A stretch of DNA of 64,000 nt from Alphaproteobacteria bacterium (GTDB lineage: Bacteria; Myxococcota_A; UBA796; GCA-2862545): positions 116,910 to 180,909 of the forward strand of contig JACKER010000007.1 of NCBI GenBank assembly GCA_020632925.1, given 5' to 3'. The notes beneath the pieces were generated by a model. It saw only the letters and a list, made by a program, of their open reading frames with translations, searched no databases and had not been told where the DNA came from. The position numbers and the translations under genes are program-made. Below, piece after piece: positions 8,594 through 42,448 of the stretch (within the stretch, counting starts at the first letter, position 1; each line of letters opens with the position of its first letter).

Positions 8594-9658
8594 ATGGGTC
8601 GCAACATCAGCCTGGTGCTCGGCATCTCGATGATGACGCTCGCGGGGTGCGAGGTCATCCAGCAGGCGCTGGCGAGCTTGTCCGAGATCGAGCTGCTCGG
8701 CGTCGTCCCGGACCAGAACTTCTCGAACACGGGCACCGCCGGATACGGCAAGGTCCGGTTCGCCATCGGTGGCCGTGACGACCTCGGCCAGGCGCTGGCG
8801 CCCTTCGCCGACGAGATCGAGATCACCTCGGACGACGGCCAGAACGTCGACGAGACCCCGGGCGATCAGGTCGATGGGCACACCGCGGGCTCCTTCCTGT
8901 TCCTCGTGGACGGCTCGGGATCGACCGAGGCGGACCTGACCTGCGACGGCTGCCCCACCGACCCGAACCGCCTGCGCGTCGAGGCGACCAAGGCGCTCGC
9001 GCAGGAGCTCGGCTACTGCGGCGGCGGCTGGCGCATGTCGCTGATGGAGTTCGGCGGGTACCCGGACAACGGCTTCTCCGCGACCCACGTGCTGTCCGAC
9101 TGGACGACCGACGACGACGCGCTCGAGGCCGCCGCCGACGGGCTCTCCTCGTACTCGACCACCCCCCTGTGGGACTCGCTGTACGAGACGCTCGACGCGC
9201 TCGCCGCGGACGAGCCGACCGGGACGACGACCGTGGCCGACTCGGGCATCGACCTGGGCGGCGAGCGCGGCCGCGGGCTGGTGGTCGCGAGCGACGGCAC
9301 GGACAACGTCTCCAGCCACACGATCGACGACGTGGTGGCCAAGGCGACCTCGCTCGGCATCCCCGTGCACGCGATCGGCTTCGGCCCCGCGTCGGACTCG
9401 GACGCGAACCCGAACGACCTCGCCGTCCAGGCGCTGCAGAAGCTGGCCGGCGCGACCGGCGGGACCTACGGCTTCGTCTCCACGGTCGAGGACCTGCCCG
9501 CCCTGACGACCGCCATCGCCGGCGCGATGTGCGGCGGGTACACCGAGGTCGAGGGCACCTTCGACGAGCCGCCCCCCTCGGGCGACACCGTCACGGGCTC
9601 GCTGCGCCTGAAGGGAGCCCCCTCCATCGGCGTGCCCTACACCTTCCGCGCCCCCTGA
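8594..9658 (+). CDS. vWA domain lipoprotein
   Basis: Signal peptide with lipobox: MGRNISLVLGISMMTLAGC. RBS GGGAGGTGAGGA. Contains the vWA MIDAS motif LFLVDGSGST. Confidence 0.75.
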   Translation: MGRNISLVLGISMMTLAGCEVIQQALASLSEIELLGVVPDQNFSNTGTAGYGKVRFAIGGRDDLGQALAPFADEIEITSDDGQNVDETPGDQVDGHTAGSFLFLVDGSGSTEADLTCDGCPTDPNRLRVEATKALAQELGYCGGGWRMSLMEFGGYPDNGFSATHVLSDWTTDDDALEAAADGLSSYSTTPLWDSLYETLDALAADEPTGTTTVADSGIDLGGERGRGLVVASDGTDNVSSHTIDDVVAKATSLGIPVHAIGFGPASDSDANPNDLAVQALQKLAGATGGTYGFVSTVEDLPALTTAIAGAMCGGYTEVEGTFDEPPPSGDTVTGSLRLKGAPSIGVPYTFRAP

Positions 9659-10156
9659 TCAGAACGCGTTGGTGTTGACGACGATCTGCACGGGCGTGAG
9701 GACGGTGGCGCCGGTCGGGTCGACCGTGAGGTCGGCGATGGCGTAGGCGGGCCAGCTCTGGCTCGCCGACGCGCAGTCCGACGCGCAGAGGAAGACGGCC
9801 ACGTCGATCTCGTCGGGCTCGATGCCCTCGAGCGGGTCGCTCCCCGGGAAGTAGTCGATCTCGTCGGGCTCGATGCCGACGAGCGCCTGGCCGTTCGGGT
9901 CGATGCCGATGATGGCGTCGGCGGTGAACGGCGAGCCGTGCACGGTGGCGACGAGGTCGCCGGCGCGGTCACGGGCCACGGTGACGCCGCTCCCGCCCGT
10001 GGGGTCGAGGGTCGGCTGGAACATCAGCGAGATGCCGCCGGGGTCGAACGTGCTGGTGCTGGTCATGGTGCTGGTGTCGCACCGCACGTAGAAGGCCTCC
10101 TTGGGCTTCGAGCCGGCGTGGGCGGAGGTGGCGAGCAGGGCGAGGGCGAAGGTCAT
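9659..10156 (-). CDS. secreted hypothetical protein
   Basis: The start was moved to MTFALALLATSAHAGS (Sec signal), preceded by AAAGGAGC. The C-terminus ends ...VVNTNAF. Confidence 0.5.
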   Translation of the reverse strand: MTFALALLATSAHAGSKPKEAFYVRCDTSTMTSTSTFDPGGISLMFQPTLDPTGGSGVTVARDRAGDLVATVHGSPFTADAIIGIDPNGQALVGIEPDEIDYFPGSDPLEGIEPDEIDVAVFLCASDCASASQSWPAYAIADLTVDPTGATVLTPVQIVVNTNAF

Positions 10157-10598: not shown

Positions 10599-11169
10599 AG
10601 AAGCAATCACGAAGCAAACGATGCAGACGGGTGCGCCCACCGCCATCCGTGATGGATGACGTCGAAACACGGGCCCGGAAACGAAAAACCCCCGGGTCCA
10701 TCGTCGGAGCCGGGGGCTTCTGCGCGATCGGAGGCCGATCGTCGCGTCACGCACCCGAGTCCGGGACGGACCCGCTGGTATCTCGGTCCGCCGCGGGGAA
10801 GCGGAGGCCGGGCTGCGGCACGAGGTGGTAGGCGTTCGTCATGGTTGGAGGGGTAAGCCGATGGGGATCGCCTGTCCAGGAGATCGTGTAGATTTCTCGT
10901 GAGTTGGCCTCACACGGTCTTTTGTAGGAATGTGCTTGCCGGATCCGAGTCGAACGGGCTAGCTCCAGACCATGCTGGTGATCCCCGCCATCGCTCCGTC
11001 GACGCTCGCGTGCACCTCCTCGTGCTCGTGGGATTCGACCGTGGTGTCGGGGGGCTGACCAGCATGCTGCGCCCCCGGCACGGACGCCGGGGTGCCACCG
11101 CCTCCTGGTCTCCGTGTCGGTGGTGCGGATCCACCACCAACCACCCTCTCAGGAGGACGGAGGCCCGTG

Positions 11170-18955: not shown

Positions 18956-19046
18956 CGCGGCATGGTCGGCCCAACTCGACCGGTTGTCAACGATGGGAGA
19001 CAACCAGCGGGCACGGGCCTTGCTTGGTGACCGGCAGGAGGTCGAT

Positions 19047-28549: not shown

Positions 28550-29289
28550 CCCAGGCCGAACCAGGCGCCGAGCAGCCCTCCCAGCGCGGACAGGGCCGCC
28601 ATCCCGACCCCGACGGCCACCATGCCGCCGACCAGCACGAACACGATCGTCCGTTCCCGGCGCTTCGCTGCCTCCTGCCTGGCCACGAGCTCGTCGCGCA
28701 TCGCGAACACGCCGTGCTTGAGCCGTCGGCGGGCCACGGCACCGGCCTCGACGTGGTCCGACAGGCGCACGGTGGCACCGCAGTGCGTGCAGGTCAGCTG
28801 GACGCGGTGGTCGTCGGGGACGTCGTTGTGCGCGCCGCAGCTCGGGCAGTCCAGCCCCTCGGCGACCAACCGCTTCAGTGCCTCGTTCTCCGCCACCTGC
28901 CGCGCCATGTCGAGCTGGAGCCGCTCGGCGTCGTCGATGTAGGCCGACACGGGCCAGGTCCGGTCGCAGGCCTCGCACCGCACCTGCTTCGCCGTGAGGT
29001 CCAGCGGGACGTCGACCGTCTGGCCGCACTTCAGACAGGGCATGGGGCGGACGGCGGTGCTCTCGTCCTCGAGCTTGGGCGCGGTGGCGATGCTGGCCGG
29101 GTCGAAGGGCTGTTGCACCGCCTCGTTCATCCAACCCACCAGCGCGTCGACCGAGCGGGAGGCCCCGTCGGCGAGCTCGGCCGTCCGCAGCTCCTGGTGG
29201 CAGGACACGCACGTGAAGGTCCCCGTGCGGAGATCTTCGGGCAACGGGTTGCTGGTGCCGCAGGAGGGGCAGGCGAGGGTCTGGCTCAT
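28546..29289 (-). CDS. zinc-ribbon protein with C-terminal membrane anchor (4 x CxxC pairs)
   Basis: MSQTLACPSCG...CVSCH, CLKCG...CEAC, CPSCG...CTHCG; C-terminal TM IVFVLVGGMVAVGVGMAALSALGGLLGAWF. ATGA overlap with the upstream regulator gene. Confidence 0.6.
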   Translation of the reverse strand: MSQTLACPSCGTSNPLPEDLRTGTFTCVSCHQELRTAELADGASRSVDALVGWMNEAVQQPFDPASIATAPKLEDESTAVRPMPCLKCGQTVDVPLDLTAKQVRCEACDRTWPVSAYIDDAERLQLDMARQVAENEALKRLVAEGLDCPSCGAHNDVPDDHRVQLTCTHCGATVRLSDHVEAGAVARRRLKHGVFAMRDELVARQEAAKRRERTIVFVLVGGMVAVGVGMAALSALGGLLGAWFGLG

Positions 29290-30752
29290 GGGGGGCTCCG
29301 GCGCAGCCCGAGGGAGGCGAGCTTGCGCTTCACGGTGTTCCGGTCGACCTCGAGCGCCCGCGCGGTGGCGCTGATGTTGCCGCCGGTCGCCGCCCACGCG
29401 TTCCGCACCGCCTGCTGCTCGGCGTCCGCCAGCACGTCGGCCAACGGGCGCACGCCATCGGCGGTCGGCGTCGACGCGGGACGTATCCCGCGGAGCTCGG
29501 GCGACAGGTCCTCGAGCGTGACCCGGCCCTCGGCGAACACGCACCAGCGCACGACCTCGGCCCGCAGCTCGCGTACGTTCCCGGGCCAGCGCCAGGCGGC
29601 GAGACGCGCCCAGGCGTCGGCGGCGACGGGCAGCTCGGGGCGGCCCTGCTCCTCGAGGAAGCGCGCGACGAGCGCGGGCAGGTCGTCGACGCGCTCGCGA
29701 AGCGGCGGCACCTGCAGCACCACGCCCGACAGGCGGTACCAGAGGTCCTCGCGGAAGCGCCCGCGGTCCACCTCCGCCTTCAGGTCCCGATGCGTCGCGC
29801 ACACGAGGCGCACGTCGACCTTCACGTCCTGTTCGCCGCCGAGGCGCCGCAGCTCGCCCTCCTGGAGCACGCGGAGGAGGCCGACCTGCACCCGCGCGGA
29901 GAGCTCGCCGACCTCGTCGAGGAAGAGCGTGCCCTTGTGCGCGAGCTCGAACAGGCCCCGTCGGCGGGCGCTGGCGCCGGTGAACGCCCCGGCCTCGTGG
30001 CCGAAGAGCTCACTCGCGAGCAGCCCGTCGTCGAAGGCGCCGCCGTTGCAGGCCACGAACGGCCCCTTCGCGCGGGGGCTCGCCTCGTGGATCGCGCGTG
30101 CGACGAGCTCCTTGCCGGTCCCGGTCTCGCCGTGCACCAGCACCGGCACGTCGGTCGGCGCCACCCGGAGCATCCGCGAGCGCAGCGTGCGCATCGCCGC
30201 CGACTCGCCGACCATCCCGTGGCGCACGACCCCGTCCGCCCGCAGGCGCACGACCTCCTCGCGCAGCGCGCGGATCTCCGGGAAGCCCTCGACCGGCATG
30301 CGCACGACGCGCACGGGGTGCGGGTGGGGCACGGGCACGAAGCGCGCGGGCACGACCTGCAGCATGCGCGCGGGCAACAAGCCGCTCTCGACCAGGATCA
30401 CCCACAGGGTCTGCGCCTGCGGCGTACCGGCGGAGAGCAGCACGTCGAGCCCCTCGGCGCCGCGCAGCTCCTCGACCAGCGGCCGCACCGCGGCGAAGAG
30501 CTGCTCGTGGTCCGACGGGTCGGTCAGCGGCACCGCGCGCAGCTCGACGGTGCAGCCGAGCGCCTCGGCCTCGCGCTTCAGCTCCCGACCGCCGCGGAGG
30601 CCCGCCTCGGGGACCAGCACCAGGACGCGATAGTAGCGCTCGTGGTCCAGCAGGCGCAGCACCGGGCCGCGGTCCTGCTCGGGGCGAGGGCCGTGGTGGG
30701 CGGGCGGCGGGCCCGCGCCGCGATCGGTCCAGGTGAGGAGCGTGCGGCTCAC
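29286..30752 (-). CDS. rtcR: RtcR-like sigma54-dependent regulator (N-terminal CARF-like domain + AAA+ + HTH)
   Basis: GTG start overlapping the TGA of the MVP gene (GTGA). The N-terminal 170 aa align with the E. coli RtcR CARF domain: DHEQLFAAVRPLVEELRG and LDVLLSAGTPQAQTLWVILVESGLLPARMLQV, compare DYLIHITTGTHVAQICWFLLAEARYLPARLIQ. This is followed by GETGTGKE, GAFTGA, and a C-terminal HTH. The upstream part of the 1265-aa ORF is junk. Confidence 0.75.
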   Translation of the reverse strand: MSRTLLTWTDRGAGPPPAHHGPRPEQDRGPVLRLLDHERYYRVLVLVPEAGLRGGRELKREAEALGCTVELRAVPLTDPSDHEQLFAAVRPLVEELRGAEGLDVLLSAGTPQAQTLWVILVESGLLPARMLQVVPARFVPVPHPHPVRVVRMPVEGFPEIRALREEVVRLRADGVVRHGMVGESAAMRTLRSRMLRVAPTDVPVLVHGETGTGKELVARAIHEASPRAKGPFVACNGGAFDDGLLASELFGHEAGAFTGASARRRGLFELAHKGTLFLDEVGELSARVQVGLLRVLQEGELRRLGGEQDVKVDVRLVCATHRDLKAEVDRGRFREDLWYRLSGVVLQVPPLRERVDDLPALVARFLEEQGRPELPVAADAWARLAAWRWPGNVRELRAEVVRWCVFAEGRVTLEDLSPELRGIRPASTPTADGVRPLADVLADAEQQAVRNAWAATGGNISATARALEVDRNTVKRKLASLGLRRSPP

Positions 30753-33253
30753 GCCTCGTCGTTGCCCTTGATGCGCTCGAGGACGCCGGCCAGCGGGGTG
30801 CCCGCGAACATCTTGTCCACGACCTCCACGAAGTTCCGGCCGCCGACGATCTGCTGCACGCTGAGCGCCTCGGCGACCTTCACCAGGGTCTCCTCGTGCG
30901 ACAGGGCGAGCAGCGCCTCGGAGAACCCGCCCTGGGCGGCCTCGAAGCGCGCGACCACCGCGTCCACCTCGGCCTTGAGCGCGGCCAGCTTCAGCTCCTG
31001 GTCCACGCGGGAGAGCGCCTGACGCTGCTCGTGGGTCGCCTTCTCGCGGACGAGCTGCCCCTCGTGCTCGACGGCGATCGCGGCCACCTTCGCGGTGTTG
31101 GCCTCCTGCCGCCGCTGGTGCTGCTGGACCTCGCCCGCGAGCGCCGCCAGCGCGACCGAGAGCTTGGCCTTCGCCTGCTCGATCTCGAGCTCTGCCAGGC
31201 GGGTCTGCGTCGCCGTACGGGCCTCGGCCATGGAACGCGCGATGCCCTCCTGCTGCTGCGTGACCTCGAGGCTGCGCTCGGCGCGGAGCAGCGTGATCGA
31301 GGACTCGACCGCCTCGTGCTGGGCCTGGGCGAGGAGCGTCGCGATGCGGTCGTCGTCGATGCCGACCTCCAGCACCTCCACGTCCGTCACCACCATCCCG
31401 TTCTCCGCGAAGCGCATGCCGGGGCGCGGCGAGCCCTCGGACGCCTTGCCGAGGATGCCGTCCCGCACGATGTCGACGGCCTGCTTGTAGAACTGCTCGA
31501 CCGGCAGCTTTTTGATCTGGCCCTTGAGCACGCTGCGGACGTGGTCGCAGAGCAGCTTCACGTAGTTCTCGACCTCGAACCACTTCTCGGACTCGCCCGT
31601 GAAGTTCACGCGGAGGCTGTACTCGAGCGTGATGCGCACGTGGTCGGCGGTCTCGACCTCGCAGGTGTCGCCGACGCGGTTGTTGAGCACCCGCAGGAAG
31701 GACGTGCGCAGCAGCCGGTCGGTGGACTTGGGGCGGCCGGTCGACAGCTCGAGGATCTCGAGCGTCTCGTCGTACTCGAGCAACAGGTTGCGCGGGCCGA
31801 CCTCGACGCGGCGGTTGCCGCTCTTGTCGACGACCATCACCGCGTACCCCACCCAGACGTTGACGTTGGGCACGCCCTCGAACTTGGTGTTGAACACGAT
31901 GGTGCGGGGCTGGGTGTACGAGCTGCCGCGCTCGACCACGTCGCCGACCATCGCGGGCACGTCGCGGCTCACGGCGGAGGCGTCCATGGCGACCGACTGC
32001 GACGCGGGCAGCGGCGCCTTGCCCCCGCGCTGCTGCTGCTGGACGCGGTTCGCGCGCTGGTAGTCGCCCTCGCTGACCACCCCGGCGCGCGTGGTGGGCG
32101 CGGCGTCCGCGAGGCGGCGGAGCTGGCGGTTGTACGTCAGCGCCTCGTCGTTGCCCGGGTACCAGGTCTCGCACTCGCGGTCGGACAGGATGCGGCGGAC
32201 GATGACCTCGTCGACGGGGTTGGGCAGCAGCATGAGCGGCCCGCGCGCCATGTGGATGGCGCCCGTCTTGCGGTTCATCACGTAGCGGGCCTCGCCGGCG
32301 GGCACGGCGGTCGCGAAGTGCTTGTCGCGCCCGTCGTAGCGGACCAGGCTGTGCTCCTCGCGCGGGAAGTAGATGGCGGCGTCCTTGCCCGTCAGGAAGA
32401 TCTCGTCGCCTTCCTTGTACGCCTTCCCACCGTCCTCGTAGGGCGCGATGATCTTGATGTGGAGCCCCTGGATCTCGTTGAGCTCCACGGCGCGGAACTT
32501 CCGGTGCTGGTCCTTCTGGATGAAGGTCTCGGTAGGCTCGGGGAACACGACCTGCGGGCCGCGCTCGTACCGCTTCTTGCCGTTCTGATCCACCAGGATG
32601 CAGTACTCGAGGCGCTCCAGGGTGAGGGCGTCGCGCACGTACAGCCCGTCGTCGTCGGCGACCACCCCGACACCGGTGGGCGGGATGTAGAAGCTCACGT
32701 CGGTGCCCTTGATGATGAGCAGCTTGCCGACGGTCAGGTCCTGCGGAGCCTGCGCGACGGGCGCCTCGGGAGCGCCGTCGCCGGCGGGCTTGATGACGGC
32801 CTTGCCCCAGTTCTTGCGCGCCTCGTCCTCGTTGTAGACCCGGACCAGCAGGTACTGGTTGGACCGGAGGTGGTGGCCCTGGACGAGCTTGACGATCTGC
32901 CCGGGCCACAGCGCGAAGCTGCACGGGCCGTTGATGTTGATCTTGCGACCGACCTCGAGATCGGGCGACGGGTAGACGCCGCCGAACGGCGGGTGGTCGT
33001 TCTTCGTCGAGGGGTTCTTGAGGGTGAGGTAGTAGCCCTCGGGCGCGATGGCGATCTGCTGCACGGCCTCCTCGAGCCCGCACGGCTCGAAGTGCTTGGT
33101 GCCGGCGTCGAAGCGGACGGGCCGCTCCTGGGCGGTCGGGTTGATCACCGTGGGCCCGGTGTACGTCTTGACGATGCCCTTGGTGACGTCCTGCATGTAG
33201 GCGTACTCGCTGGGCGCGAGCACGAGGTCCCGCTTCTGCGCGCGATCGTCCAT
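30749..33253 (-). CDS. major vault protein (MVP) homolog, full length (N-terminal repeats, shoulder, cap-helix coiled coil)
   Basis: 834 aa starting at MDDRAQKRDLVLAPSEYAYMQDVTKGIVKTYTGPTVINPTAQERPV, compare human MVP [39 protein letters not shown]. Shoulder region LELSTGRPKSTDRLLRTSFLRVLNNRVGDTCEVETADHVRITLEYSLRVNF, compare [50 protein letters not shown]. C-terminal Ala/Glu/Gln-rich coiled coil of about 150 aa. RBS GGGAGAACCACG. Confidence 0.8.
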   Translation of the reverse strand: MDDRAQKRDLVLAPSEYAYMQDVTKGIVKTYTGPTVINPTAQERPVRFDAGTKHFEPCGLEEAVQQIAIAPEGYYLTLKNPSTKNDHPPFGGVYPSPDLEVGRKININGPCSFALWPGQIVKLVQGHHLRSNQYLLVRVYNEDEARKNWGKAVIKPAGDGAPEAPVAQAPQDLTVGKLLIIKGTDVSFYIPPTGVGVVADDDGLYVRDALTLERLEYCILVDQNGKKRYERGPQVVFPEPTETFIQKDQHRKFRAVELNEIQGLHIKIIAPYEDGGKAYKEGDEIFLTGKDAAIYFPREEHSLVRYDGRDKHFATAVPAGEARYVMNRKTGAIHMARGPLMLLPNPVDEVIVRRILSDRECETWYPGNDEALTYNRQLRRLADAAPTTRAGVVSEGDYQRANRVQQQQRGGKAPLPASQSVAMDASAVSRDVPAMVGDVVERGSSYTQPRTIVFNTKFEGVPNVNVWVGYAVMVVDKSGNRRVEVGPRNLLLEYDETLEILELSTGRPKSTDRLLRTSFLRVLNNRVGDTCEVETADHVRITLEYSLRVNFTGESEKWFEVENYVKLLCDHVRSVLKGQIKKLPVEQFYKQAVDIVRDGILGKASEGSPRPGMRFAENGMVVTDVEVLEVGIDDDRIATLLAQAQHEAVESSITLLRAERSLEVTQQQEGIARSMAEARTATQTRLAELEIEQAKAKLSVALAALAGEVQQHQRRQEANTAKVAAIAVEHEGQLVREKATHEQRQALSRVDQELKLAALKAEVDAVVARFEAAQGGFSEALLALSHEETLVKVAEALSVQQIVGGRNFVEVVDKMFAGTPLAGVLERIKGNDEA

Positions 33254-33275
33254 CGTGGTTCTCCCGTGGTTTCGG

Positions 33276-34823
33276 CTAACGGGTGATCGCGACACCGGCG
33301 ACGAGCCCGAGGACGCCCCCCAGCGCGAGCCCGACGGAGAGGCCGACGGCGACCCAGCCCGCCGGGATGCCGCGTGGTTCCGTGGAGATCACGCCCTGCT
33401 CGCGGAGGAAGTCGCCGAGGGAGCGGGTCTCGTTGAAGGAGCGCTCGATCTTGAGCAGTCGCTCGGCGGTGCGCGGCCGCTGGCTGATCGTGAGCGCGAG
33501 CTGGGGGAGGAGCTGCGTGAAGTCCTCGCGCATCGACGGCCCGAACAGCCGGCGGCGGAGGATGGCGCCGGTGATCGTGCGGACCTCGGCGGCCCCGTCG
33601 AGGTCGGGGCAGTAGCGCAGGACGATGCCCTCGACGATGGTGAGGTTGCGCAGGACGACGAACAGGTCGGACTGGGCGCTCATGTGGTAGCTGGCGCCGA
33701 CGCGCATGCCGGCGATGAGCTGCTCGGTGATGCGGTGGTCGCCGATCCGCCCACCCTCGCCGCCGGCCGCGAGGACGGCGCGCAGATCCCGCTTGAGGGC
33801 GACCTGGTCCACCCCCGGCTCGGGGCGGAAGACCTGGACGAAGGCCTCGACGGCGTCGTCGTAGCGACGGGAGGCCTGGCAGAAGACGACCTCGAGCATC
33901 TTGTCGCGCAGCGCCCTCGGGAGCTGGGCGTGCAGGCCGAAGTCGACGAGCCCGATGCGCCCCGCGGGCTCGAGGATGAGGTTGCCGGGGTGGGTGTCGC
34001 CGTGGACGAAGCCGTGCTCGTAGCACATGGAGAGCTGAAGCCGGAGCATGGAGCGGCAGAAGGCCTCGGGGTCGTAGCCGAGGGCCTGGAGCGCCTGGGG
34101 TGTGCCGACGTCGGAGAGCTTGGTGCCCTCGAGCCAGGACATGACGAGCAGGTGCGGCGTACACAGGTGCGAGACGACGGTGGGGACGACGAACTCGGGC
34201 AGCGTGGTGAGGACCTCGTCGAACCGGTCGATGGCGCGGGCCTCGGCGAGGAAGTCGAGCTCACCACGGGCGCGGGCGGCGTACTCCTCGGCGACGCGGT
34301 GGACCATGGCGCGGTGGTAGGGCGGCACGAGGCGGTCGATGAAGCCGGAGAGCGTGAGGAGCGTGTCGAGGTCGGACAGCAGGGACTCCTCGAGCCCCGG
34401 GCGCTGGACCTTGACGGCGACCTCGAGGCCTCCGTCGCGCAGCGTGGCTCGGTAGACCTGGGCGATGGAGGCGGCGGCGACGGGGGACTCGCCGAAGGAC
34501 GCGAAGACCTCGTCGAGGGGGCGTCCGAGCTCGCGCTCGACGATCTGGCGCGCCGTGTCGGTGGGGAAGGGCTCGACGGAGGACTGGAGCTTCCCGAGCT
34601 CTTCGGTGAAGGTCTCGCCGAACAGATCGACCCGCGTGGAGAGCATCTGGCCGAACTTCACGAAGGTGGGGCCGAGGCGCTCGAGGGTCCTGCGGAGGCG
34701 GACGGCCGTGTCGGCGTCGCTGCGCGCGGGCTCGTCGGGCTTCTCGGTGGGTGACTCGGTGAGCCAGCCGAGGCCTTCCTCGAGCAGGACCTTCGTGATC
34801 GTGGCGACGCGTGCGAGCTTCAT
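33276..34823 (-). CDS. UbiB/ABC1 (ADCK) family atypical protein kinase with C-terminal TM segment
   Basis: The start MKLARVATI lies within the 1171-aa ORF; the upstream part is junk. Motifs TFVKFGQMLSTRVDLFGETF, AVKVQRPG, HGDTHPGNL, VDFG. C-terminal hydrophobic helix. It is 22 nt upstream of the MVP start. Confidence 0.75.
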   Translation of the reverse strand: MKLARVATITKVLLEEGLGWLTESPTEKPDEPARSDADTAVRLRRTLERLGPTFVKFGQMLSTRVDLFGETFTEELGKLQSSVEPFPTDTARQIVERELGRPLDEVFASFGESPVAAASIAQVYRATLRDGGLEVAVKVQRPGLEESLLSDLDTLLTLSGFIDRLVPPYHRAMVHRVAEEYAARARGELDFLAEARAIDRFDEVLTTLPEFVVPTVVSHLCTPHLLVMSWLEGTKLSDVGTPQALQALGYDPEAFCRSMLRLQLSMCYEHGFVHGDTHPGNLILEPAGRIGLVDFGLHAQLPRALRDKMLEVVFCQASRRYDDAVEAFVQVFRPEPGVDQVALKRDLRAVLAAGGEGGRIGDHRITEQLIAGMRVGASYHMSAQSDLFVVLRNLTIVEGIVLRYCPDLDGAAEVRTITGAILRRRLFGPSMREDFTQLLPQLALTISQRPRTAERLLKIERSFNETRSLGDFLREQGVISTEPRGIPAGWVAVGLSVGLALGGVLGLVAGVAITR

Positions 34824-34858
34824 GGGACGGCAGTATGCACCGGGGTGTAGAGTGGAAC

Positions 34859-35155
34859 ATGCGCCGAATGTCCACTCTCCTCCTCCTCCTGACCGCCTGC
34901 GGCGGCGAGACCACCCCGACCGAGACCATGTCGGACGCCTGCGCATGGGAGGAGGAGCGCGGGACGTGCCCGAGCTGCTCGGACGGGGAGGTGACCTGCA
35001 CGCTCGACGGGGTGGAGGTGACCTCGGGCACCTGCGGGAGCTGCCAGGTGCTGTGGAAGCTGGCGTCGGAGCTGTGCGCGGCGGGCAGCGACGTGACGAC
35101 CGAGGAGATCGAGGGCGCCGACTGCACGGACCCCACCTGGTCGACCTCCGACTGA
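34859..35155 (+). CDS. small Cys-rich lipoprotein
   Basis: MRRMSTLLLLLTACGG lipobox. 12 Cys in 98 aa. The start is only about 35 nt from the divergent UbiB-like start, so the start or the gene reality is uncertain. Confidence 0.4.
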   Translation: MRRMSTLLLLLTACGGETTPTETMSDACAWEEERGTCPSCSDGEVTCTLDGVEVTSGTCGSCQVLWKLASELCAAGSDVTTEEIEGADCTDPTWSTSD

Positions 35156-35211
35156 GGGTCGCGGTCCGGGGTTCGCCCGGCAGGATGGCACCGAGGGCGG
35201 CGTGCAGTCCC

Positions 35212-35480
35212 GGGGGGATGGCCGGGCAAGGTGGCCCCTGTGCAACACACGGCGTGCGCCGACGGGGGGATGGCCGGGCAAGGTGGCCCCTGTGCAACAC
35301 GCAGCGTGCACCGACGGGGGGATGGCCGGGCAAGGTGGCTCCTGTGCAACACACGGCGTGCAGTTCCGGGGGGATGGCCGGGCAAGGTGGCTCCTGTGCA
35401 ACACACGGCGTGCAGCCCTGGGGGGATGGCCGGGCAAGGTGGGGTGGATGCAACGCGCCGCGAGGCAAGGTGCCCCTCGT
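35212..35480. repeat. REP-like tandem array, block 1: 5 direct copies of a 52-bp unit (consensus about ATGGCCGGGCAAGGTGGCCCCTGTGCAACACACGGCGTGCACCGACGGGGGG)
   Basis: Exact 52-nt periodicity (unit A residues at 35218, 35270, 35322, 35374, 35426). 46 nt are conserved plus about 6 variable nt. The fifth copy is degenerate and carries an insertion. 52 is not a multiple of 3, so the region is non-coding. Confidence 0.8.
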
Positions 35481-35607
35481 GCAACACGCGGCGTCGGGAG
35501 CTGACGGACCAACGCCAGGTCTGGTGCGGTCTTGCTTCCCGGGTGCCTCAGATCCGGGCCTTCCGGTTGCATTGGGGTGCCCTTGCCTCCCCGACGGTTG
35601 CACCGAC

Positions 35608-35865
35608 GGGGGGATGGCCGGGCAAGGTGGCTCCTGTGCAACACGCGGCGTGCACCCCCGCGGGGATGGCCGGGCAAGGTGGCCCCAGTGCAACACACGG
35701 CGTGCACCGACGGGCGGATGGCCGGGCAAGGTGGCCCCTGTGCAACAGGCGGCGTGCACCCAGGGGGGGATGGCCGGGCAAGGTGGCCCCTGTGCAACAC
35801 ACGGCGTGCGCACGCACGGGGATGGCCGGGCATGGTGGCCCTTGTGCAACACGACATGGAGCAGG
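35608..35865. repeat. REP-like tandem array, block 2: 5 more copies of the same 52-bp unit
   Basis: Unit starts at 35614, 35666, 35718, 35770, 35822. Separated from block 1 by about 130 bp of unique sequence. Immediately upstream of the RAYT gene. Confidence 0.8.
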
Positions 35866-35999
35866 CGGGGAAGCCCGACCGGGCAGGACGTCCTGGAAGG
35901 CGCGGCTTCCCCGCCGTCCGTCACTTCGACGGACGTCGGTCGGTCGGTCACGGACCAACCTGGGTGATCCGCGGTCCGTGGGTTGCATCGTCGCCCACC

Positions 36000-36779
36000 A
36001 TGTTCCATCTCGTCGCACGCAGCGCCGACGGGCGCTTCCTGTTCCGCACCTGGGTCGAGGGCCTCGCGCTCTGGCGGCGTGTCCTCCGTGTCGCGCCGCG
36101 CACCGTCGCGCTCGTCGTCATGCCCGACCACCTCCACCTGCTCCACGCCTCCGACAACCGGCTCGAGCTCGCGCAGGCCCTCTCCGGGTACGCGCGGTGG
36201 CGCAACCGAGCGCGAGGCGAGCGCGGGCGCGTCTTCGAGCCACTGCCGTCGGCCATTCCCATCGGTACGGGCGACAAGCGGTCGCGCGCCATCCGCTACG
36301 TCCACCTCAACCCGTGCCGCGCTCGGCTCGTGTCCGATCCGCTCGCGTGGCCGCTCTCCACCCATCGGGACGCCCTCGGCCTGGCCCTCCCCGCAGCCAT
36401 CCGCGCTCACGCCGACCCCGAGGACTTCCATCGCTACGTCTCCTCCGATCCCAGCGTGAACGTCGATGGCACCGAGCTCCCGAAGGCCGGCGAAGCACCC
36501 GATCCGGAGCGGGTGCTCCAGGCGATCTCCGCCCTCACCCGAACCCCGGTCGCCCAGCTCCGGTGCAAGGGCCCCGCGCGCAATCTCCTCGTCGGCGCCA
36601 TGCGCGAGCTCTGTCCCGAGCAGCCGGTCTCGCAGGTCCATCGCACGACCGCCTGGCGTCGTCGCTCGATCGGGGTCCCGACGGATCGTGTGGTCTCGGT
36701 CCTCGCCGATCCCCGGTTCGCTCCGCTCCAGCACGGAGATCTCCGGGCGGGGTGGCGGGAGTACCGCCAGCATCGATGA
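36000..36779 (+). CDS. REP-associated tyrosine transposase (IS200/IS605 TnpA-like HUH enzyme, RAYT)
   Basis: MFHLVARSADGRFLF...VALVVMPDHLHLLHAS (HuH motif) and RSRAIRYVHLNPCRARLV (catalytic Tyr motif). No IS ends and no tnpB. Flanked by the 52-bp repeat array. Confidence 0.7.
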   Translation: MFHLVARSADGRFLFRTWVEGLALWRRVLRVAPRTVALVVMPDHLHLLHASDNRLELAQALSGYARWRNRARGERGRVFEPLPSAIPIGTGDKRSRAIRYVHLNPCRARLVSDPLAWPLSTHRDALGLALPAAIRAHADPEDFHRYVSSDPSVNVDGTELPKAGEAPDPERVLQAISALTRTPVAQLRCKGPARNLLVGAMRELCPEQPVSQVHRTTAWRRRSIGVPTDRVVSVLADPRFAPLQHGDLRAGWREYRQHR

Positions 36780-36780
36780 T

Positions 36781-36840
36781 CGATTCATCATGATGCATCA
36801 CGCATCATCGTCGGGATGATGTCTGGTGCATCAGGCTCGG
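36781..36840. promoter_or_regulatory. cluster of overlapping CATCA/TGATG inverted repeats (candidate enhancer/operator)
   Basis: tcgattCATCATGATGCATCAcgCATCATCgtcggGATGATGtcTGGTGCATCAgg: CATCATGATG and TGATGCATCA are perfect palindromes; CATCATC...GATGATG are 7-bp arms. Located 25-85 bp upstream of the sigma54 -24 element. GC is locally lower. Confidence 0.35.
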
Positions 36841-36863
36841 CCGAAACGCCAGGTTCCCCCATG

Positions 36864-36880
36864 TTGGCACGCCCGCTGCT
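36864..36880 (+). promoter_or_regulatory. sigma54 (-24/-12) promoter upstream of rtcB
   Basis: TTGGCACGCCCGCTGCT matches TGGCACG-N4-TTGCW, with GG at 36866-7, GC at 36878-9 and correct 12-nt spacing. Confidence 0.6.
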
Positions 36881-36892
36881 GTAGTGGCTGGC

Positions 36893-38080
36893 ATGGAACA
36901 CGAGACGAACATGGTGGTGCTGGACGGGGAGGGCGTCGTCATCGAGCCCGCGGCCGTCGATCAGCTCGCGCGGGTCGCCGCGCTGCCGGGGTGCGCCCGG
37001 GCGGTGGGGCTGCCGGACCTCCACCCGGGACCCGGGCTCCCGATCGGCGCTGCGGCGGCGATCGACGAGATCCGCCCCGAGCTGGTGGGCAGCGACGCGG
37101 GCTGCGGTGTGCGGCTGCTGGTCGCCGATCGCTTCAAGGTCACCGGCGACGCCCTCGAGCGCCGGGTCCGCGAGGCGACCGACGAGCCGCCGCTCCCCGA
37201 GGTCGACGCCGAGGAGGCGCTGGCCGCCGTGTGGGCCGAGGGCCCGGCGGCGCTCGCGAACGTCGCGGGGGTGCCCGACGAGCTGGCCGCACTGGCCTCG
37301 CTCGAGCCCCTCGACCCGTACCTGCACCGCGCGCTCCCCGAGGAGATGCTCTGGTCGGCCGGCTCGCTCGGCTCCATCGGCGGCGGCAACCACTTCGGCG
37401 AGCTGTCCGAGGTCGTCTCCGTCGTCGACGCGCCGGCCGCCGCGCGGATCGGGCTTCGGCGGGGGAGCGCGGTGGTGATGGTGCACAGCGGGTCGCGCGG
37501 CCTCGGGCGGATGCTCGCGGGTCGCCACGCCCACCCCCTCACGGACCCTGCGGCCTACCTCGAGGAGCTCGAGGGCTGCGTGCGCTTCGCCCGCGCCAAC
37601 CGGCTCGTCGTCGCGTGGAGGCTCGCTCGCGCCGCAGGGGTCGCCCGCGCCAGCAAGGTCGTGGGGACGCTCGACCTCGTCCACAACACGGTCGTCCGCT
37701 CGGGCGAGCGCTGGGTCCACCGCAAGGGGGCCGCGCCCGCCGAGGCCGACCAGCTCACGGTGGTGCTCGGCAGCCGCGGGGCGCACTCCTGGCTCATGTG
37801 CGGGGCGGGCTGCGAGGACGCGCTGTGCAGCGTGGCGCACGGGGCCGGACGGCGGATCACGCGCGGTGACGCCAAGGGCCACGTCCGCAGCCGCTACCGC
37901 CGGAGCGAGCTCACCCGCACCGCCACCGGCACGCGGGTGGTCTGCGACGACACCGATCTCCTCTACGAGGAGCACCCCGACTGCTACAAGTCCATCGAGG
38001 CCGTCGTCGACGTGCTCGAGGTCCGCGGCGTCGCCCGTCGGGTCGCCGCGTTGCGGCCGCTCGTGACGGTGAAGCGGTGA
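36893..38080 (+). CDS. rtcB: RtcB-family RNA ligase (PrfH-associated RtcB2 type)
   Basis: Motifs GCGVRLL, GGGNHFGEL, VHSGSRGLG, HNTVV, HGAGR. ORF-track start is GTG 36884; I prefer the ATG at 36893 or the ATG at 36911 because the sigma54 transcription start should fall near 36890. The stop overlaps the prfH start (GTGA). Confidence 0.8.
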   Translation: MEHETNMVVLDGEGVVIEPAAVDQLARVAALPGCARAVGLPDLHPGPGLPIGAAAAIDEIRPELVGSDAGCGVRLLVADRFKVTGDALERRVREATDEPPLPEVDAEEALAAVWAEGPAALANVAGVPDELAALASLEPLDPYLHRALPEEMLWSAGSLGSIGGGNHFGELSEVVSVVDAPAAARIGLRRGSAVVMVHSGSRGLGRMLAGRHAHPLTDPAAYLEELEGCVRFARANRLVVAWRLARAAGVARASKVVGTLDLVHNTVVRSGERWVHRKGAAPAEADQLTVVLGSRGAHSWLMCGAGCEDALCSVAHGAGRRITRGDAKGHVRSRYRRSELTRTATGTRVVCDDTDLLYEEHPDCYKSIEAVVDVLEVRGVARRVAALRPLVTVKR

Positions 38081-38673
38081 GCGTCGAGCTGCTGGTCACC
38101 AGCGGCGACGGCCCCCTCGAGGTGCGGTGGTTCGTGGCCGCGCTCGTGGAGGCGCTCGCCGAGCGCTTCGCCGTGCTCGACCGGACGGTCACGGGCCCGG
38201 AGGACGCGCCGTACTCGGTGGTGCTCCAGGTGGCCGACGAGCGAGTGGGCGACTGGCTCGGCACGCACGCGCTCTACCGCCCGAGCGAGCGCCGACGGGG
38301 ACGCAGCCGCTGGTACGTCGGTGTGAGCGCGCTGCCCCCCGTACCCTCGGCACCCGAGGTCGATCCGGCCGATGTGGAGGTCCGCACGATGCGGGGCGGC
38401 GGACCGGGCGGGCAGGCCGTGAACACGACCGCGTCGGCGGTGGTCGCCGTGCACCGCCCCAGCGGCGTGTCCGTGCGCATCCAGGACGAGCGCAGCCAGC
38501 ACCAGAACCGCCGTCGCGCGCTCGAGCGGCTGGCGGTCGCGCTGGCGCGGAGGGCGGAGGCGGCGTCGGGGGTGGTGGAGCGGAGCCGCTGGCTGCGGCG
38601 GCACCAGGTGGTGCGGGGCGATCCGGTTCGCCGCTGGCGGGACGACCGCGGGCGGCTGGTGGAGGAGCGATGA
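38077..38673 (+). CDS. prfH: peptide chain release factor H (PrfH, RF2-like GGQ protein)
   Basis: MRGGGPGGQAVNTTASAVVAVHRPSGVSVRIQDERSQHQNRRRALERL carries the GGQ motif in a truncated RF2-like fold. Genetic linkage to RtcB is the known rtcB2-prfH pairing. Confidence 0.75.
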   Translation: MSVELLVTSGDGPLEVRWFVAALVEALAERFAVLDRTVTGPEDAPYSVVLQVADERVGDWLGTHALYRPSERRRGRSRWYVGVSALPPVPSAPEVDPADVEVRTMRGGGPGGQAVNTTASAVVAVHRPSGVSVRIQDERSQHQNRRRALERLAVALARRAEAASGVVERSRWLRRHQVVRGDPVRRWRDDRGRLVEER

Positions 38674-40552: not shown

Positions 40553-42448
40553 TTACAGGCCGTACCGCTCGATCATGCGGTACAGCGTGCTCCGCGCGAT
40601 GCCGAGGGCGTCCGCGGCGGCTGCGCGGCTCGGATGGAGCGCCAGCGCGCGCCGCAGCGCCTCGACCCGCTGCTCCTCGAGCGGAGCCACCTCCGCCGGA
40701 GCCCCGCCGTAGCCGAGCTCGGGGGGCAGGTGGTCCACGCACAGCTCGGGCTCGCCGTCGGCCATGGCCAGCGCGTGCATCAGCGTCATGCGCAGCTCGC
40801 GGACGTTGCCCGGCCAGTCGTGCGCCCGCAGGCGCGCCAGGGCCGCTTCGGACAGCCGCGGGGCGGCGCCCTCCGACAGCCGGTGCAAGAGGTGCTCACT
40901 CAGCGAGGCGAGATCGGTGCGTTCGCGCAGGGGGGGCAGGCCGAGCACGCCGCCGCGGATGCGGAAGAACAGGTCCTGGCGGAAGGCGCCGCTGCGCACG
41001 CGGTCCGGCAGGTCGCGGCAGGTGGCGGAGATCAGGCGGACGTTGGCCCGCCGCGGGCGTGGGTCGCCGAGCCGCTGGTAGGTCCCGTCCTCCAGGAAGC
41101 GCAGGAGCATCGCCTGGAGCCGGGGCGTCATCTCCGCGATCTCGTCCAGGAACAGCGTGCCCCCGTCTGCCGCCGCGAGGTGGCCGTCGCGGCCCTTGGG
41201 CGAGGCGCCGGTGAACGCGTTGGGCGCGTGGCCGAAGAGCTCGGACTCCAGCAGGGCCTCGGGGAGCGCGCCGCAGTTCACGACGACCAGCGGCCGGTCC
41301 GCGCGGGGGCTCGCGCCGTGGATCGCGCGCGCCAGGAGCTCCTTGCCCGTGCCGGTCTCCGCGAGGAGCAGGATCGGCAGGGGGCTGCGGGCGAGGCGTG
41401 CGGCGGTCGCGAGCGAGGCGCGGAGCCGGTCGTCCTCGCCGTGGATGGCGGAGAACGGCGAGCAGCTGGGGTCGCGCCGGTCGCCGACCAGCACCCCGGC
41501 GGTGGCGGGCTCGAGCAGCACGAGCGCCGCCACGACCTCGCCCTGCCAGGTCTCCGCAGGCTCGAACGACGCACGGCAGCCCGCCCAGGGCCCGACCTCG
41601 AGGATCTGCCGCCGACCCAGGCGCGAGGACACCGCCGCCCAGTCCATCCCCAGGCAGGAACGCAGGTCCGTCGTCCCGAGCGAGGCGGCAGCGCGCGTGT
41701 TGGCGGCGCGGACCCGGTCGCCACGCTCGACCACCAGCGCGGGACCCGGGTGCGCCTCGAGCACGCGGCGCAGCAGCTCCTGGCTCGCCGACACGCCGCC
41801 GCTCGCGCGCAGCACGGACTCGATCGCGCGCGCCGTCGCCATGAGCGTCACGGGCACCACCGGATCGAGCCCGGTGTGGAACGAGGTCGCGTCCAGCACG
41901 CCTACCACCCGGCCCAGTGGATCGCGCAGCGGCGTCGCCCAGCACGCGAGCGCGTGGTTCGTACGGGCCCAGTGGGCGGCACCGCGGACGGCGACGGGTC
42001 CACCCTCGACCAGCGCCGTGCCGATCGCGTTGGTCCCACGGATCGACTCGCTCCACTCCGCGCCCGCGATCAGGCGCACCCGCGAGGCCTCCTCCGCGAA
42101 CCCACCGCCCGCGAGCGCTCGGACGACCACCCCGTCGGCGTCCGCGAGCAGCAGGCTGAAGTCGCGCTCGGCGAAGGCAGCGGCCGCCGCGTCGAGCACG
42201 TCGGGGGCGGCGTGCAGCAGGGGCTCGACGCGATCGGTGCGCTCACGCAGCTCTCGCCCGCTGATCACGCGCTCGTCTGCCCGATCCGGGTCCGCGCCCG
42301 CGGTGCGCGCCCGCTCCCAGCGCGTCCGGACGGCACCCAGCGACGTGGGCAGCGCGAGGCCGTGGCGGAACCGTCGCCACGCCGCACCGTCCGTCACCAG
42401 GTCCAGCAAGCCGCCCACGCGCACCCTCGGTCGTCGGGATGTCCGCAT
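40553..42448 (-). CDS. AcoR-like sigma54-dependent transcriptional activator (GAF/sensor + AAA+ + HTH)
   Basis: 631 aa. [14 protein letters not shown]-like (NAFTGA), a C-terminal HTH ([15 protein letters not shown]), and an N-terminal sensory region typical of the AcoR family. Divergent from the aldehyde dehydrogenase gene. Confidence 0.75.

Follow-up and report, generated by a model that had tools for sequence, protein, structure and literature searches.

The locus described here lies within a 64-kb stretch of DNA, the whole of which is referred to below as the window. An array of 52-bp repeats is followed at this locus by an inverted repeat, two conserved boxes, a predicted sigma-54 promoter and a gene of the RAYT/TIRYT-like Y1 HUH type. 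The features are listed below in the order of their coordinates in the window, with the grounds for the assignment in brackets where these are specific.

35159–35210, plus strand: degenerate 'unit 0', a shortened and diverged 52-bp copy which opens the array (in-register print-out; TRF start 35198)
35211–35418, plus strand: block 1, four complete units (starts 35211, 35263, 35315, 35367)
35419–35494, plus strand: broken fifth unit and partial direct core copies, GGCAAGGTG..TGCAAC (nhmmer, print-out)
35504–35513, plus strand: second copy of Box 2, ACGGACCAAC, in the inter-block segment (read from sequence)
35566–35587, minus strand: the one inverted 22-nt unit core, GTTGCATTGGGGTGCCCTTGCC, located in the inter-block segment (complementarity to units)
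35607–35858, plus strand: block 2, five head-to-tail units (starts 35607, 35659, 35711, 35763, 35815)
35864–35915, no strand: perfectly abutting inverted repeat that follows the array and precedes the promoter boxes (26-nt arms, 77% complementary)
35915–35941, no strand: Box 1, near-palindrome GACGGACGTCGGTC (35928–35941), the left half of which also pairs with CGTCCGTC (35915–35922)
35950–35959, plus strand: Box 2, ACGGACCAAC, promoter-proximal conserved motif (alignment of 13 upstream regions)
35971–35988, plus strand: sigma-54-type promoter GCGGTCCGTGGGTTGCAT (−24 GG at 35973–35974, −12 GC at 35985–35986)
36000–36779, plus strand: RAYT/TIRYT-like Y1 HUH gene, 259 aa, with an N-terminal HUH/Tyr core (residues about 1–130) and a helical C-terminal domain

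Organization of the 52-bp repeat array

The 52-bp repeat array at the locus is real and non-coding. Two arrays with a 52-bp period were recognized by TRF, at 35198–35442 (4.7 copies, 89% matches) and at 35599–35853 (4.9 copies, 86% matches), and the start-to-start distance of the units is exactly 52 inside each block, which bears out the exact period reported in the first-pass annotation. Nine full units are arranged head-to-tail (35211–35418 and 35607–35858), and besides them there are incomplete copies and a single core in inverted orientation. The same annotation had counted ten units split into five and five; this is correct for block 2, the last unit of which (35815) diverges past about position 44, at its 3′ end, whereas block 1 has four complete units and a fifth one broken after its first 24 nt (35419–35442). 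Each of the block 1 units was recovered by nhmmer with an E-value of about 1e-16 to 1e-17, their pairwise identity being 45–50 of 52 positions, and partial matches were obtained at 35421–35442 (E 2e-4) and 35464–35494 (E 4e-6). The segment between the blocks, previously taken for 130 bp of unique sequence, is actually 188 bp long (35419–35606) and contains two partial direct core copies and an inverted one, the latter (35566–35587) being 73–82% complementary to the unit cores of both blocks. The proposed division of the unit into 46 conserved and 6 variable nucleotides holds, with 16 of the 26 differences among eight units sitting in 10 junction positions.

The 33-nt core of the unit gave nine matches with at most two mismatches in the 64-kb window, every one of them at the array locus, at an expectation of 0 derived from shuffles, and nhmmer scanning of the window revealed no unit copy outside this locus. 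A search for the exact pattern in 185,579 species genomes, a set which does not include the source genome, gave 0 hits. A coding repeat was rejected in view of the period, 52 not being divisible by 3, and of the GC content, which is flat by codon position (0.71/0.71/0.73). A CRISPR array, with its spacers of about 25–40 nt, was rejected as well, the variable stretch here being just 5–6 nt and its variants recurring (ACCGA three times). Separately, a 16-nt match is present at 63725–63740, in apparently coding sequence, and is probably a matter of chance.

The array was shown to be neither a folded RNA nor a DNA hairpin. Single units, units in a shifted register and the dimer, folded on both strands, gave structures no more stable than those of shuffled sequences (z +0.2 to +1.8) and formed no hairpin; neither GTAG nor CTAC occurs in the consensus unit. 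The units had been called REP-like, and in the strict sense this name does not apply, the fold not exceeding that of shuffles, the GTAG head being absent and the 64 kb containing no further copy. A structured RNA, also suggested for the array, is not borne out, as Rfam contained no match at E ≤ 1 and the RNA fold of 35200–35620 (block 1 and the spacer) was weaker than those of shuffles (z +1.66). The hairpins formed in the window are weak (z −0.9 and −2.2), the second value being that of the fold of 35815–36010, in which the inverted repeat at 35864–35915 makes up the central stem. Two other candidate descriptions of the units were discarded. An alignment that treats them as the promoter/start region of the gene in inverted form (pattern TTGCA..CCACC.(A/T)TG..CCATC) looks neat but did not exceed shuffles (P 0.06–0.29 under four scoring schemes). 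Minus-strand sigma-54 promoters within the units were dismissed too, the spacing of their −24-like and −12-like elements being 3 nt too long.

The array had also been assigned to the promoter region upstream of MVP and its operon. However, this minus-strand ABC1-MVP operon starts at 34823, and a plus-strand lipoprotein ORF, a real one with GC3 of 0.92, intervenes between it and the array. Neither sigma-70 promoters nor intrinsic terminators were found in 34700–37000, and the sigma-54 promoter of rtcB noted earlier does exist (36864–36881).

The 259-aa protein and its predicted promoter

The 259-aa protein carries the HUH and tyrosine motifs ascribed to it previously, MPDHLHLL and RYVHLNP, whose residues H44, H46 and Y100 do not vary across 99 homologues, and has the TnpArep fold with the catalytic residues intact. 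Its gene neighbours the lipoprotein ORF and rtcB; the absence of tnpB among the neighbours and of a second gene copy in the 64-kb window agrees with the earlier view that the gene is not an insertion sequence. The protein scored 38.1 bits with the NCBIfam model NF047646 (REP_Tyr_transpos) against a cut-off of 80, and no Pfam family, including the Y1_Tnp, Bac_DnaA_C and HTH models, was matched at E ≤ 1. The C-terminal domain, predicted with confidence to be helical, displayed weak sequence matches (TetR HTH, E 0.042; DnaA domain IV, E 0.49) and a probability of 6% in the hhalign comparison with E. coli DnaA domain IV, while its HTH-like region has a 6-residue deletion in comparison with the family and lower model confidence. 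This domain is probably DNA-binding. The gene belongs to a clade of RAYT/TIRYT-like genes encoding proteins of roughly 265 aa with an additional helical C-terminal domain, which comprises 536 clusters at 50% identity and is missed by current HMMs; in the metagenome scan, generic RAYTs filled the matches listed, and at least two true family members were added.

The sigma-54 promoter of the gene itself had been overlooked in the first-pass annotation. Promoters were called by the consensus match at a fixed offset and by a scan with a family PWM. The one at 35971–35988 matches TGGCACGNNNNTTGCW in 9 of 12 positions, 13 nt ahead of the ATG (null P 0.0016 per locus), although its −24 element is weak (GGTCC). 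A score of at least 9 at the family-typical offset was registered in 11 of 15 family loci, that of the window included, where the −24/−12 promoter stands 12–14 nt ahead of the start codon. Since the −12 element is 13 nt from the ATG, a near-leaderless mRNA is predicted, and the conservation of the sigma-54 promoter implies that the predicted expression of the gene is signal-dependent, not constitutive.

Two boxes are conserved upstream in the family, GACGGACGTCGGTC and ACGGNCCAAC. The 14-mer of Box 1 forms a single exact site in the 64-kb window and is also found, as an aligned column block, upstream of the homologues in the loci L162, L163 and L172, whereas Box 2 at 35950–35959 aligns with ACGG..CAAC in L163, L007 and L162. 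The second copy of Box 2, in the inter-block segment, suggests that the upstream module was duplicated. Judging by their position and conservation, both boxes are candidate upstream activating sites. Two EBP genes are present in the window, and none is conserved beside the family gene among the family loci compared. No description of the sigma-54 promoter and Box 1/Box 2 of this family was encountered in the literature searched, including the available portions of PMC3733652 and PMC6006769.

Repeat clusters beside related genes

That repeats adjoin genes of this kind, as the first-pass annotation had supposed, proved to be a family trait: gene-adjacent clusters of direct or inverted repeats, often in tandem and differing in sequence by lineage, were detected in 12 of 17 related loci. 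The repeat content of a flank exceeded the 95th percentile of control windows in these loci, with about 10% expected, a contrast that is inflated by the controls being mostly coding DNA. In L172, six direct and three inverted 31-nt units are located upstream of the gene and about five and three, respectively, downstream of it, and a related third cluster is found 5.7 kb away (E 7e-4 and 0.011). A 62-nt repeat is present in 3.1 copies in L164 and a 25-nt repeat in 4.8 copies in L005, while in L162 and L083 the repeats form 2+2 arrangements. Units occupy both sides of the gene in L163 and L172, and repeats lie downstream of it in L164, L083, L166 and L005. An inverted-unit pair beside the gene in L001 forms a hairpin (z −6.4), and comparable pairs exist in L004, L005 and L007; a putative second REPIN copy in L001, considered as a sign of dispersal, belongs to a segmental duplication (inverted, ~600 bp) and was left out of the count. 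Paralogues in one genome are each accompanied by different repeats (the pairs L003/L004 and L171/L173). The HMM of the window's unit found no match in 173 other loci (956 kb), which fits co-evolution of the unit with the adjacent protein. Short strings in common with L172 are ATGGCCGGG.

Interpretation of the locus and comparison with known systems

Considering these data, we are somewhat inclined to regard the locus as REPtron/TIRtron-like, i.e., as a domesticated Y1 HUH nuclease gene with its own lineage-specific cognate repeat, amplified locally. According to this model, the cognate repeat would have expanded head-to-tail to 9–10 copies of 52 bp in the 5′ intergenic region of the gene, the 42–46-nt conserved core of the unit being a putative site bound and/or nicked by the neighbouring protein and the 6-nt junction presumably serving as an unconstrained linker. 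The protein may contact single-stranded DNA via the HUH core and, possibly, double-stranded DNA via the C-terminal domain. Growth of the array could have proceeded by local duplication, through either unequal recombination/slippage or HUH-catalysed strand transfer into the adjacent copy, and the upstream module (units, Box 2 and inverted core) may have been duplicated once as a whole, producing the 5+5 layout. The predicted expression of the protein, and hence any activity on the repeats, would need an enhancer-binding protein. Characterised Y1 enzymes recognise hairpins, and the hairpin-less unit found here counts against this model, as do the missing downstream inverted partner and GGGGWSAS motif, the scores of the protein under the curated HMM cut-offs, and the deletion and lower model confidence in its HTH-like region; in addition, no further unit copy in 64 kb testifies to dispersal, the hallmark of REP/TIR families. 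Going further, and in our opinion quite improbably, the protein might be a putative sigma-54-controlled ssDNA nuclease/ligase, not a relic transposase, which on an activator signal would excise, add or circularise units beside its own gene, so that the array would be its living product and substrate.

Several other explanations have to be weighed against the REPtron/TIRtron-like one. The units may represent double-stranded enhancer or operator sites for the gene's sigma-54 promoter, acting either as UAS for an EBP or in titration/autoregulation via the HTH-like domain at the C-terminus of the protein. With a period of 52 bp, nearly five helical turns, the sites would all face the same side of the helix, the array is located 140–790 bp upstream of a family-conserved promoter of the type that requires upstream activator sites, and a conserved core with a free linker is what protein sites would show; the two EBP genes in the window and the weak HTH/DnaA-IV-like matches of the C-terminal domain point in the same direction. 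Such a role is nevertheless unlikely, as the repeats are wholly different between lineages and lie downstream of the gene in several relatives, no EBP gene is conserved beside the family gene, the two boxes, whose position is conserved, make better UAS candidates, and ten sites would far exceed known enhancers. We ascribe a rather small chance also to a neutral minisatellite, grown by replication slippage or unequal crossing-over and functionally unlinked to the gene. Although the exact head-to-tail period, the high unit identity, the restriction of the unit to this locus within 64 kb and its absence from the other loci examined, as well as the lack of structure in the unit and array folds, are consistent with it, repeat clusters recur in 12 of 17 independent family loci versus about 10% expected, those of L172 flank the gene on both sides, the segment separating the blocks contains a core copy in inverted orientation, and the variation is gathered in the 6-nt junction, which neither simple drift nor array-wide gene conversion would predict.

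A classical REP/BIME system, with the locus being a REPtron whose palindromic, high-copy and genome-dispersed REPs are mobilised by the adjacent RAYT, appears quite unlikely: neither the unit nor its dimer folds above the level of shuffles, whichever strand is taken, GTAG and CTAC are both absent from the unit, the units run head-to-tail whereas BIMEs alternate, zero extra copies occur in 64 kb while REP families typically have one every few kb, and the protein falls under the curated REP_Tyr_transpos cut-off. In its favour are the RAYT-like fold and motifs, the dispersed cluster of its own units in L172, and the tandem-reiterated REP clusters beside RAYT genes documented in PMC3733652 and PMC3333891. 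It is very hard to believe in an array of small structured RNAs, or in a structured UTR, whether its transcription comes from the lipoprotein gene or runs toward the RAYT-like gene. A plus-strand ORF does end 5′ of the array and no terminator is predicted between them, but against this reading stand the absence of an Rfam match at E ≤ 1, the fold of 35200–35620, worse than shuffles (z +1.66), the units without stable stems and the predicted sigma-54 start site downstream of the array.

Few domesticated transposases of bacteria are as common as RAYTs and their relatives, whose regulation and role in the cell have yet to be settled. The locus and its relatives add a well-defined and sizeable clade that current HMMs miss, and the conserved near-leaderless sigma-54 promoter with two boxes provides a testable regulatory handle. 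With the gene-adjacent tandem arrays of non-palindromic units, the range of possible Y1 targets extends past hairpin REPs. Should the protein prove to act on the arrays, the birth and amplification of REP-/TIR-type repeats could be studied at this locus as a simple model; if it does not, the array would be an ordinary minisatellite by a domesticated gene.

The protein shares with E. coli TnpArep (RAYT, PDB 4er8; Ton-Hoang 2012, PMC3333891; Messing 2012, PMC3479197) the HuH and Tyr motifs, YxHxNP being aligned, and the position of a single-copy chromosomal gene (single in the window in our case) beside clustered repeats. However, the two sequences are very distant (phmmer E 0.84, 16–22% identity), and the window protein is extended at its C-terminus by a further domain of about 120 aa. 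In contrast to the E. coli REP/BIME, the unit is 52 bp long, non-palindromic and without the GTAG head, and the nine full units have the same orientation and an exact 52-bp period instead of forming alternating REP pairs, with one inverted core copy. Similarity to the REPIN-RAYT systems (Bertels & Rainey 2011, PMC3116915; Bertels 2017, PMC5581495), for which the genome-wide abundance of flanking 16-mers is the operational criterion, consists in the domesticated appearance of the genes, the lineage-specific repeats and the folding of the relatives' inverted unit pairs into long hairpins, whereas the window has one inverted core copy versus ten direct ones and weak hairpins. Unlike IS200/IS605 TnpA, the window protein is twice as long, single-copy in the window, not accompanied by tnpB and not matched by Pfam Y1_Tnp, and its gene is not surrounded by paired subterminal left- and right-end hairpins.

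RAYT/TIRYT genes have at their flanks either REPs or inverted repeats of an unrelated kind, which are able to form dimers, clusters and tandem reiterations (PMC3733652), C-terminal HTH/Bac_DnaA_C-like domains are present in TnpAY1 subclass 2.1 (PMC6006769), and the TIRYT/TIRtron of Di Nocera et al. 2013 (PMC3733652) probably corresponds to this subclass according to Quentin et al. 2018 (PMC6006769). A TIRYT would be expected to carry a C-terminal HTH domain of the Bac_DnaA_C, HTH_23 or HTH_28-like type. The window protein is like TIRYT in being a Y1 HUH protein homologous to TnpArep, longer than it and supplied with an extra helical, possibly HTH-like, domain at the C-terminus, and unlike it in that the Pfam Bac_DnaA_C and HTH models remain undetected. 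The gene is like those of TIRtrons in being decorated by lineage-specific non-REP repeats, possibly as dimers or clusters, in having several paralogues per genome with different repeats each, and in the absence of tnpB. The 9–10-copy head-to-tail array on one side only differs from TIRtrons, as does the lack in the window of the downstream inverted partner and of GGGGWSAS, the majority type: no convincing inverted partner of the unit was found downstream of 36779, which departs from the canonical TIRtron layout, and the GGGGWSAS motif had no match in positions 24934–45742 of the window. A GGGGTGAC was observed upstream of the L172 gene.

Anatomy of the array and its surroundings

Two 52-bp arrays were delimited by Tandem Repeats Finder at 35198-35442 (4.7 copies) and 35599-35853 (4.9 copies), and a window scan with the 33-nt core returned nine matches with no more than two mismatches, all within the array locus, and none in shuffles. 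Unit start-to-start spacing is exactly 52 inside each block. The tandem array reported in the first-pass annotation is thus real, and its division of the unit into 46 conserved and 6 variable nucleotides is correct, as 16 of the 26 differences among eight units are located in ten junction positions. The 5+5 layout holds for block 2 and not for block 1, whose fifth unit is interrupted after 24 nt. Nor is the inter-block segment (188 bp) plain unique DNA, as had been supposed, since it contains partial direct unit copies and an inverted core 73-82% complementary to the unit cores of both blocks. The array is non-coding, because its period is no multiple of three and its GC by codon position is flat (0.71/0.71/0.73; GC3 of neighbouring genes, 0.87-0.96). 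On the top strand of 35211-35858 each unit carries five G-runs (GGGGGG, GG, GGG, GG, GG) inside 23 nt, so that two-tetrad G-quadruplexes would be conceivable there.

Features of the array locus (window positions)
about 34857-35155, +, lipoprotein ORF (lipobox LLTAC, GC3 0.92)
35211-35418, +, block 1, four complete units (in-register print-out)
35421-35442 and 35464-35494, +, partial direct unit copies between the blocks (nhmmer)
35504-35513, +, second copy of Box 2, between the blocks
35566-35587, -, 22-nt core, present once in inverted orientation, between the blocks
35607-35858, +, block 2, five units, the final one divergent at its 3' end
35928-35941, Box 1, near-palindrome GACGGACGTCGGTC (alignment of upstream regions)
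35950-35959, +, Box 2, ACGGNCCAAC (alignment of upstream regions)
35971-35988, +, predicted sigma-54 promoter of the RAYT-like gene, GCGGTCCGTGGGTTGCAT, 9/12 at the family offset
36000-36779, +, RAYT-like gene (ORF, 259 aa)
36864-36881, +, predicted rtcB sigma-54 promoter, TTGGCACGCCCGCTGCTG (family PWM scan)

The minus-strand ABC1-kinase, MVP-like and RtcR-like genes start at 34823, and the plus-strand lipoprotein ORF intervenes; the array follows the 3' end of the lipoprotein gene and precedes the RAYT-like gene, and therefore lies outside the MVP operon promoter, where it had originally been placed. Within 29289-38673 the RtcR-like sigma-54 activator (-) is set apart from rtcB-prfH (+) by the MVP-like gene, the ABC1 kinase, the lipoprotein ORF and the RAYT-like gene, and this split of the rtc module is unusual. 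The activator has a weak RtcR-domain match, slightly under the Pfam cut-off, and the MVP-like gene encodes a major vault protein shoulder domain; a bacterial vault-protein homologue thereby shares an operon with the RtcR-like activator.

The RAYT-like protein and the repeats beside its relatives

The RAYT-like protein matched no Pfam family at E <= 1, while NCBIfam REP_Tyr_transpos matches residues 34-120 with 38 bits, under its 80-bit cut-off. The sole PDB match by phmmer was TnpArep (E 0.84), which was reached at 2.7e-7 with a 99-sequence family profile; the AlphaFold model built on this family alignment is confident (pLDDT 94), and every one of the 99 homologues retains the HuH histidines and the tyrosine. 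Residues ~135-259 form an extra helical domain, for which HTH-type matches of the family profile are weak (TetR, E 0.04; DnaA domain IV, E 0.49) and hhalign against E. coli DnaA domain IV gave a probability of 6%. Six residues kept in 16/16 aligned relatives are deleted in the HTH-like C-terminal part of the window protein. The gene, whose GC3 (0.87) is below that of its neighbours (0.96), is single-copy within the 64-kb window; the small lipoprotein ORF precedes it and rtcB-prfH follows it, which bears out the absence of tnpB. A word-indexed search found 246 relatives, mostly in Myxococcota-type MAGs and metagenomes, and an exhaustive one 536 clusters at 50% identity (E <= 1e-30), so the family is sizeable.

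The comparison set comprised 16 loci with full-length family members (40-59% identity), and the genomic context of the family gene is conserved in none of them. At 12/17 loci at least one 450-bp flank exceeded in repeat content the 95th percentile of control windows drawn from these loci; the controls are mostly coding DNA, which qualifies the contrast. The flanking repeats are lineage-specific, with direct and inverted copies, and frequently tandem; some genomes hold two paralogues with differing repeats (L003/L004; L171/L173).

Repeats beside family genes at related loci (L handles)
L172, upstream: 31-nt units, six direct and three inverted
L172, downstream: 31-nt units, about five direct and three inverted
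L172, another intergenic region 5.7 kb away: further related cluster (nhmmer E 7e-4 and 0.011)
L164: 62-nt unit, 3.1 copies, downstream of the gene
L005: 25-nt unit, 4.8 copies
L162, L083: 2+2 arrangements
L001, L004, L005, L007: inverted pairs giving long hairpins (L001, z -6.4)

L172, with arrays of direct then inverted units on both gene sides (9577-9855, 10801-11050) and a related cluster of 2+3 units at 4150-4320, is the best comparator for studying dispersal. A second copy in L001 was rejected as dispersal, since it belongs to an inverted segmental duplication of ~600 bp (3575-4190 versus 5223-5846) adjoining the family gene; this duplication takes in both a pseudo-copy of the neighbouring gene and a long-hairpin element, with arms CGAACCGGACACCC..., and hints at rearrangement activity around family loci. 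On the upstream side of the family gene in L003, ~100 N (3602-3701; assembly gap or masked) separate two identical 55-nt repeats, and many contigs with family members are just 1-3 kb long; repeat clusters by family genes may often interrupt assembly from short reads and thus be under-reported.

Sigma-54 promoters and upstream boxes

An alignment of the 60 nt preceding family start codons contains a -24/-12 element, GGCAC-N5-(T)TGC. Promoters were scored, independently of this alignment, against the sigma-54 consensus TGGCACGNNNNTTGCW, reportedly that of Barrios et al. 1999, with a threshold of at least 9/12. Eleven of 15 family loci reach it, and in these the -12 C precedes the start codon by 12-14 nt, in most cases 13; at a random position the chance of this is 0.0016. 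The promoter before the RAYT-like gene has a weak -24 half; with 5.7 bits on the family PWM it ranks in the top 0.05% of positions across the window. Because of the promoter-to-ATG geometry, the transcript is predicted to begin 1-3 nt before the ATG, as a near-leaderless mRNA. Box 1 has a single exact site in the window and is identical in L162, L163 and L172, and the second copy of Box 2 between the blocks points to a single duplication of the upstream module as the source of the 5+5 layout. We found no publication linking RAYT/TIRYT genes with sigma-54.

The rtcB promoter is present, as first annotated, ~1 kb past the array on its downstream side; nothing connects the two, and rtcB neighbours the family gene in no relative. 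An unusually AT-rich stretch between the RAYT-like stop codon and this promoter contains a 19-nt inverted repeat (36791-36833; TGATGCATCACGCATCATC / GATGATGTCTGGTGCATCA, 84% complementary, 5-nt gap), which might bind RtcR or act as a terminator. Several very strong sigma-54 promoter-like sites, with family-PWM scores exceeding that of the rtcB promoter, occur at 19008(+) (CGGGCACGGGCCTTGCTT), 10205(-), 15072(-), 2826(-) and 1856(-); such promoters seem abundant in the window, which also holds a second EBP gene (40556-42448, -).

Possible origin of the array

Our preferred reading, which we hold to be somewhat probable, is that the units are cognate repeats of the adjacent Y1 enzyme, amplified locally, with sigma-54-controlled expression. 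The conserved core would be the enzyme's site and the junction a free linker; the array would have grown head-to-tail by unequal recombination, slippage or HUH-mediated strand transfer, and the enzyme would be produced only once some enhancer-binding protein activates its promoter. That the units are instead an enhancer/operator array for this promoter is unlikely, as repeat sequences change from lineage to lineage and some relatives have them on the downstream side of the gene; Boxes 1 and 2 are the better conserved UAS candidates. We give equally little credence to a neutral minisatellite, against which stand the family-wide recurrence of repeats beside the gene and the conservation of the core next to a variable linker.

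A strict REP/BIME, the label first attached to the unit, is still more doubtful. Single units, a shifted register and the dimer fold no better than dinucleotide shuffles on either strand (z +0.2 to +1.8), so the folding check proposed earlier revealed no hairpin; neither GTAG nor CTAC is present in the 52-bp unit, and the units run head-to-tail, not alternating. Searched with a nine-unit HMM, the rest of the 64-kb window yielded no further copy at E < 0.8 and 956 kb of other loci yielded none, and the unit had zero matches among 185,579 species (one representative genome each, the source genome not among them). The unit was therefore rejected as a REP in the defining sense. A structured RNA, also proposed at the outset, is very improbable, since the array has no Rfam match and folds worse than shuffles. 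The attractive idea that the units derive, in inverted orientation, from the promoter/start segment of the gene itself failed shuffle tests.

Considered as cognate repeats, the locus belongs with RAYT/TIRYT genes flanked by such repeats, a known kind, and the first-pass interpretation is supported in part. Di Nocera et al. (PMC3733652) describe TIRYT homologues of RAYTs flanked by non-REP inverted repeats, which may make dimers, clusters and moderately abundant families, and Quentin et al. (PMC6006769) define TnpAY1 subclass 2.1 by long proteins that carry HTH/Bac_DnaA_C-like domains at the C-terminus and have no typical REPs nearby. The repeats beside the relatives' genes agree with these descriptions. 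Compared with that template, however, the window locus has repeats on one gene side only (no convincing inverted partner was found downstream of the gene), lacks the GGGGWSAS motif (no match in 24934-45742) and shows unusually large head-to-tail amplification. Notable here are the non-palindromic 52-bp tandem amplification and, at the family level, the conserved putative sigma-54, near-leaderless promoter with its conserved upstream boxes. A 16-nt exact match to the unit start (CGGGGGATGGCCGGGC) at 63725-63740, 28 kb off and apparently coding, may be a coincidence (roughly estimated chance expectation, ~0.02).
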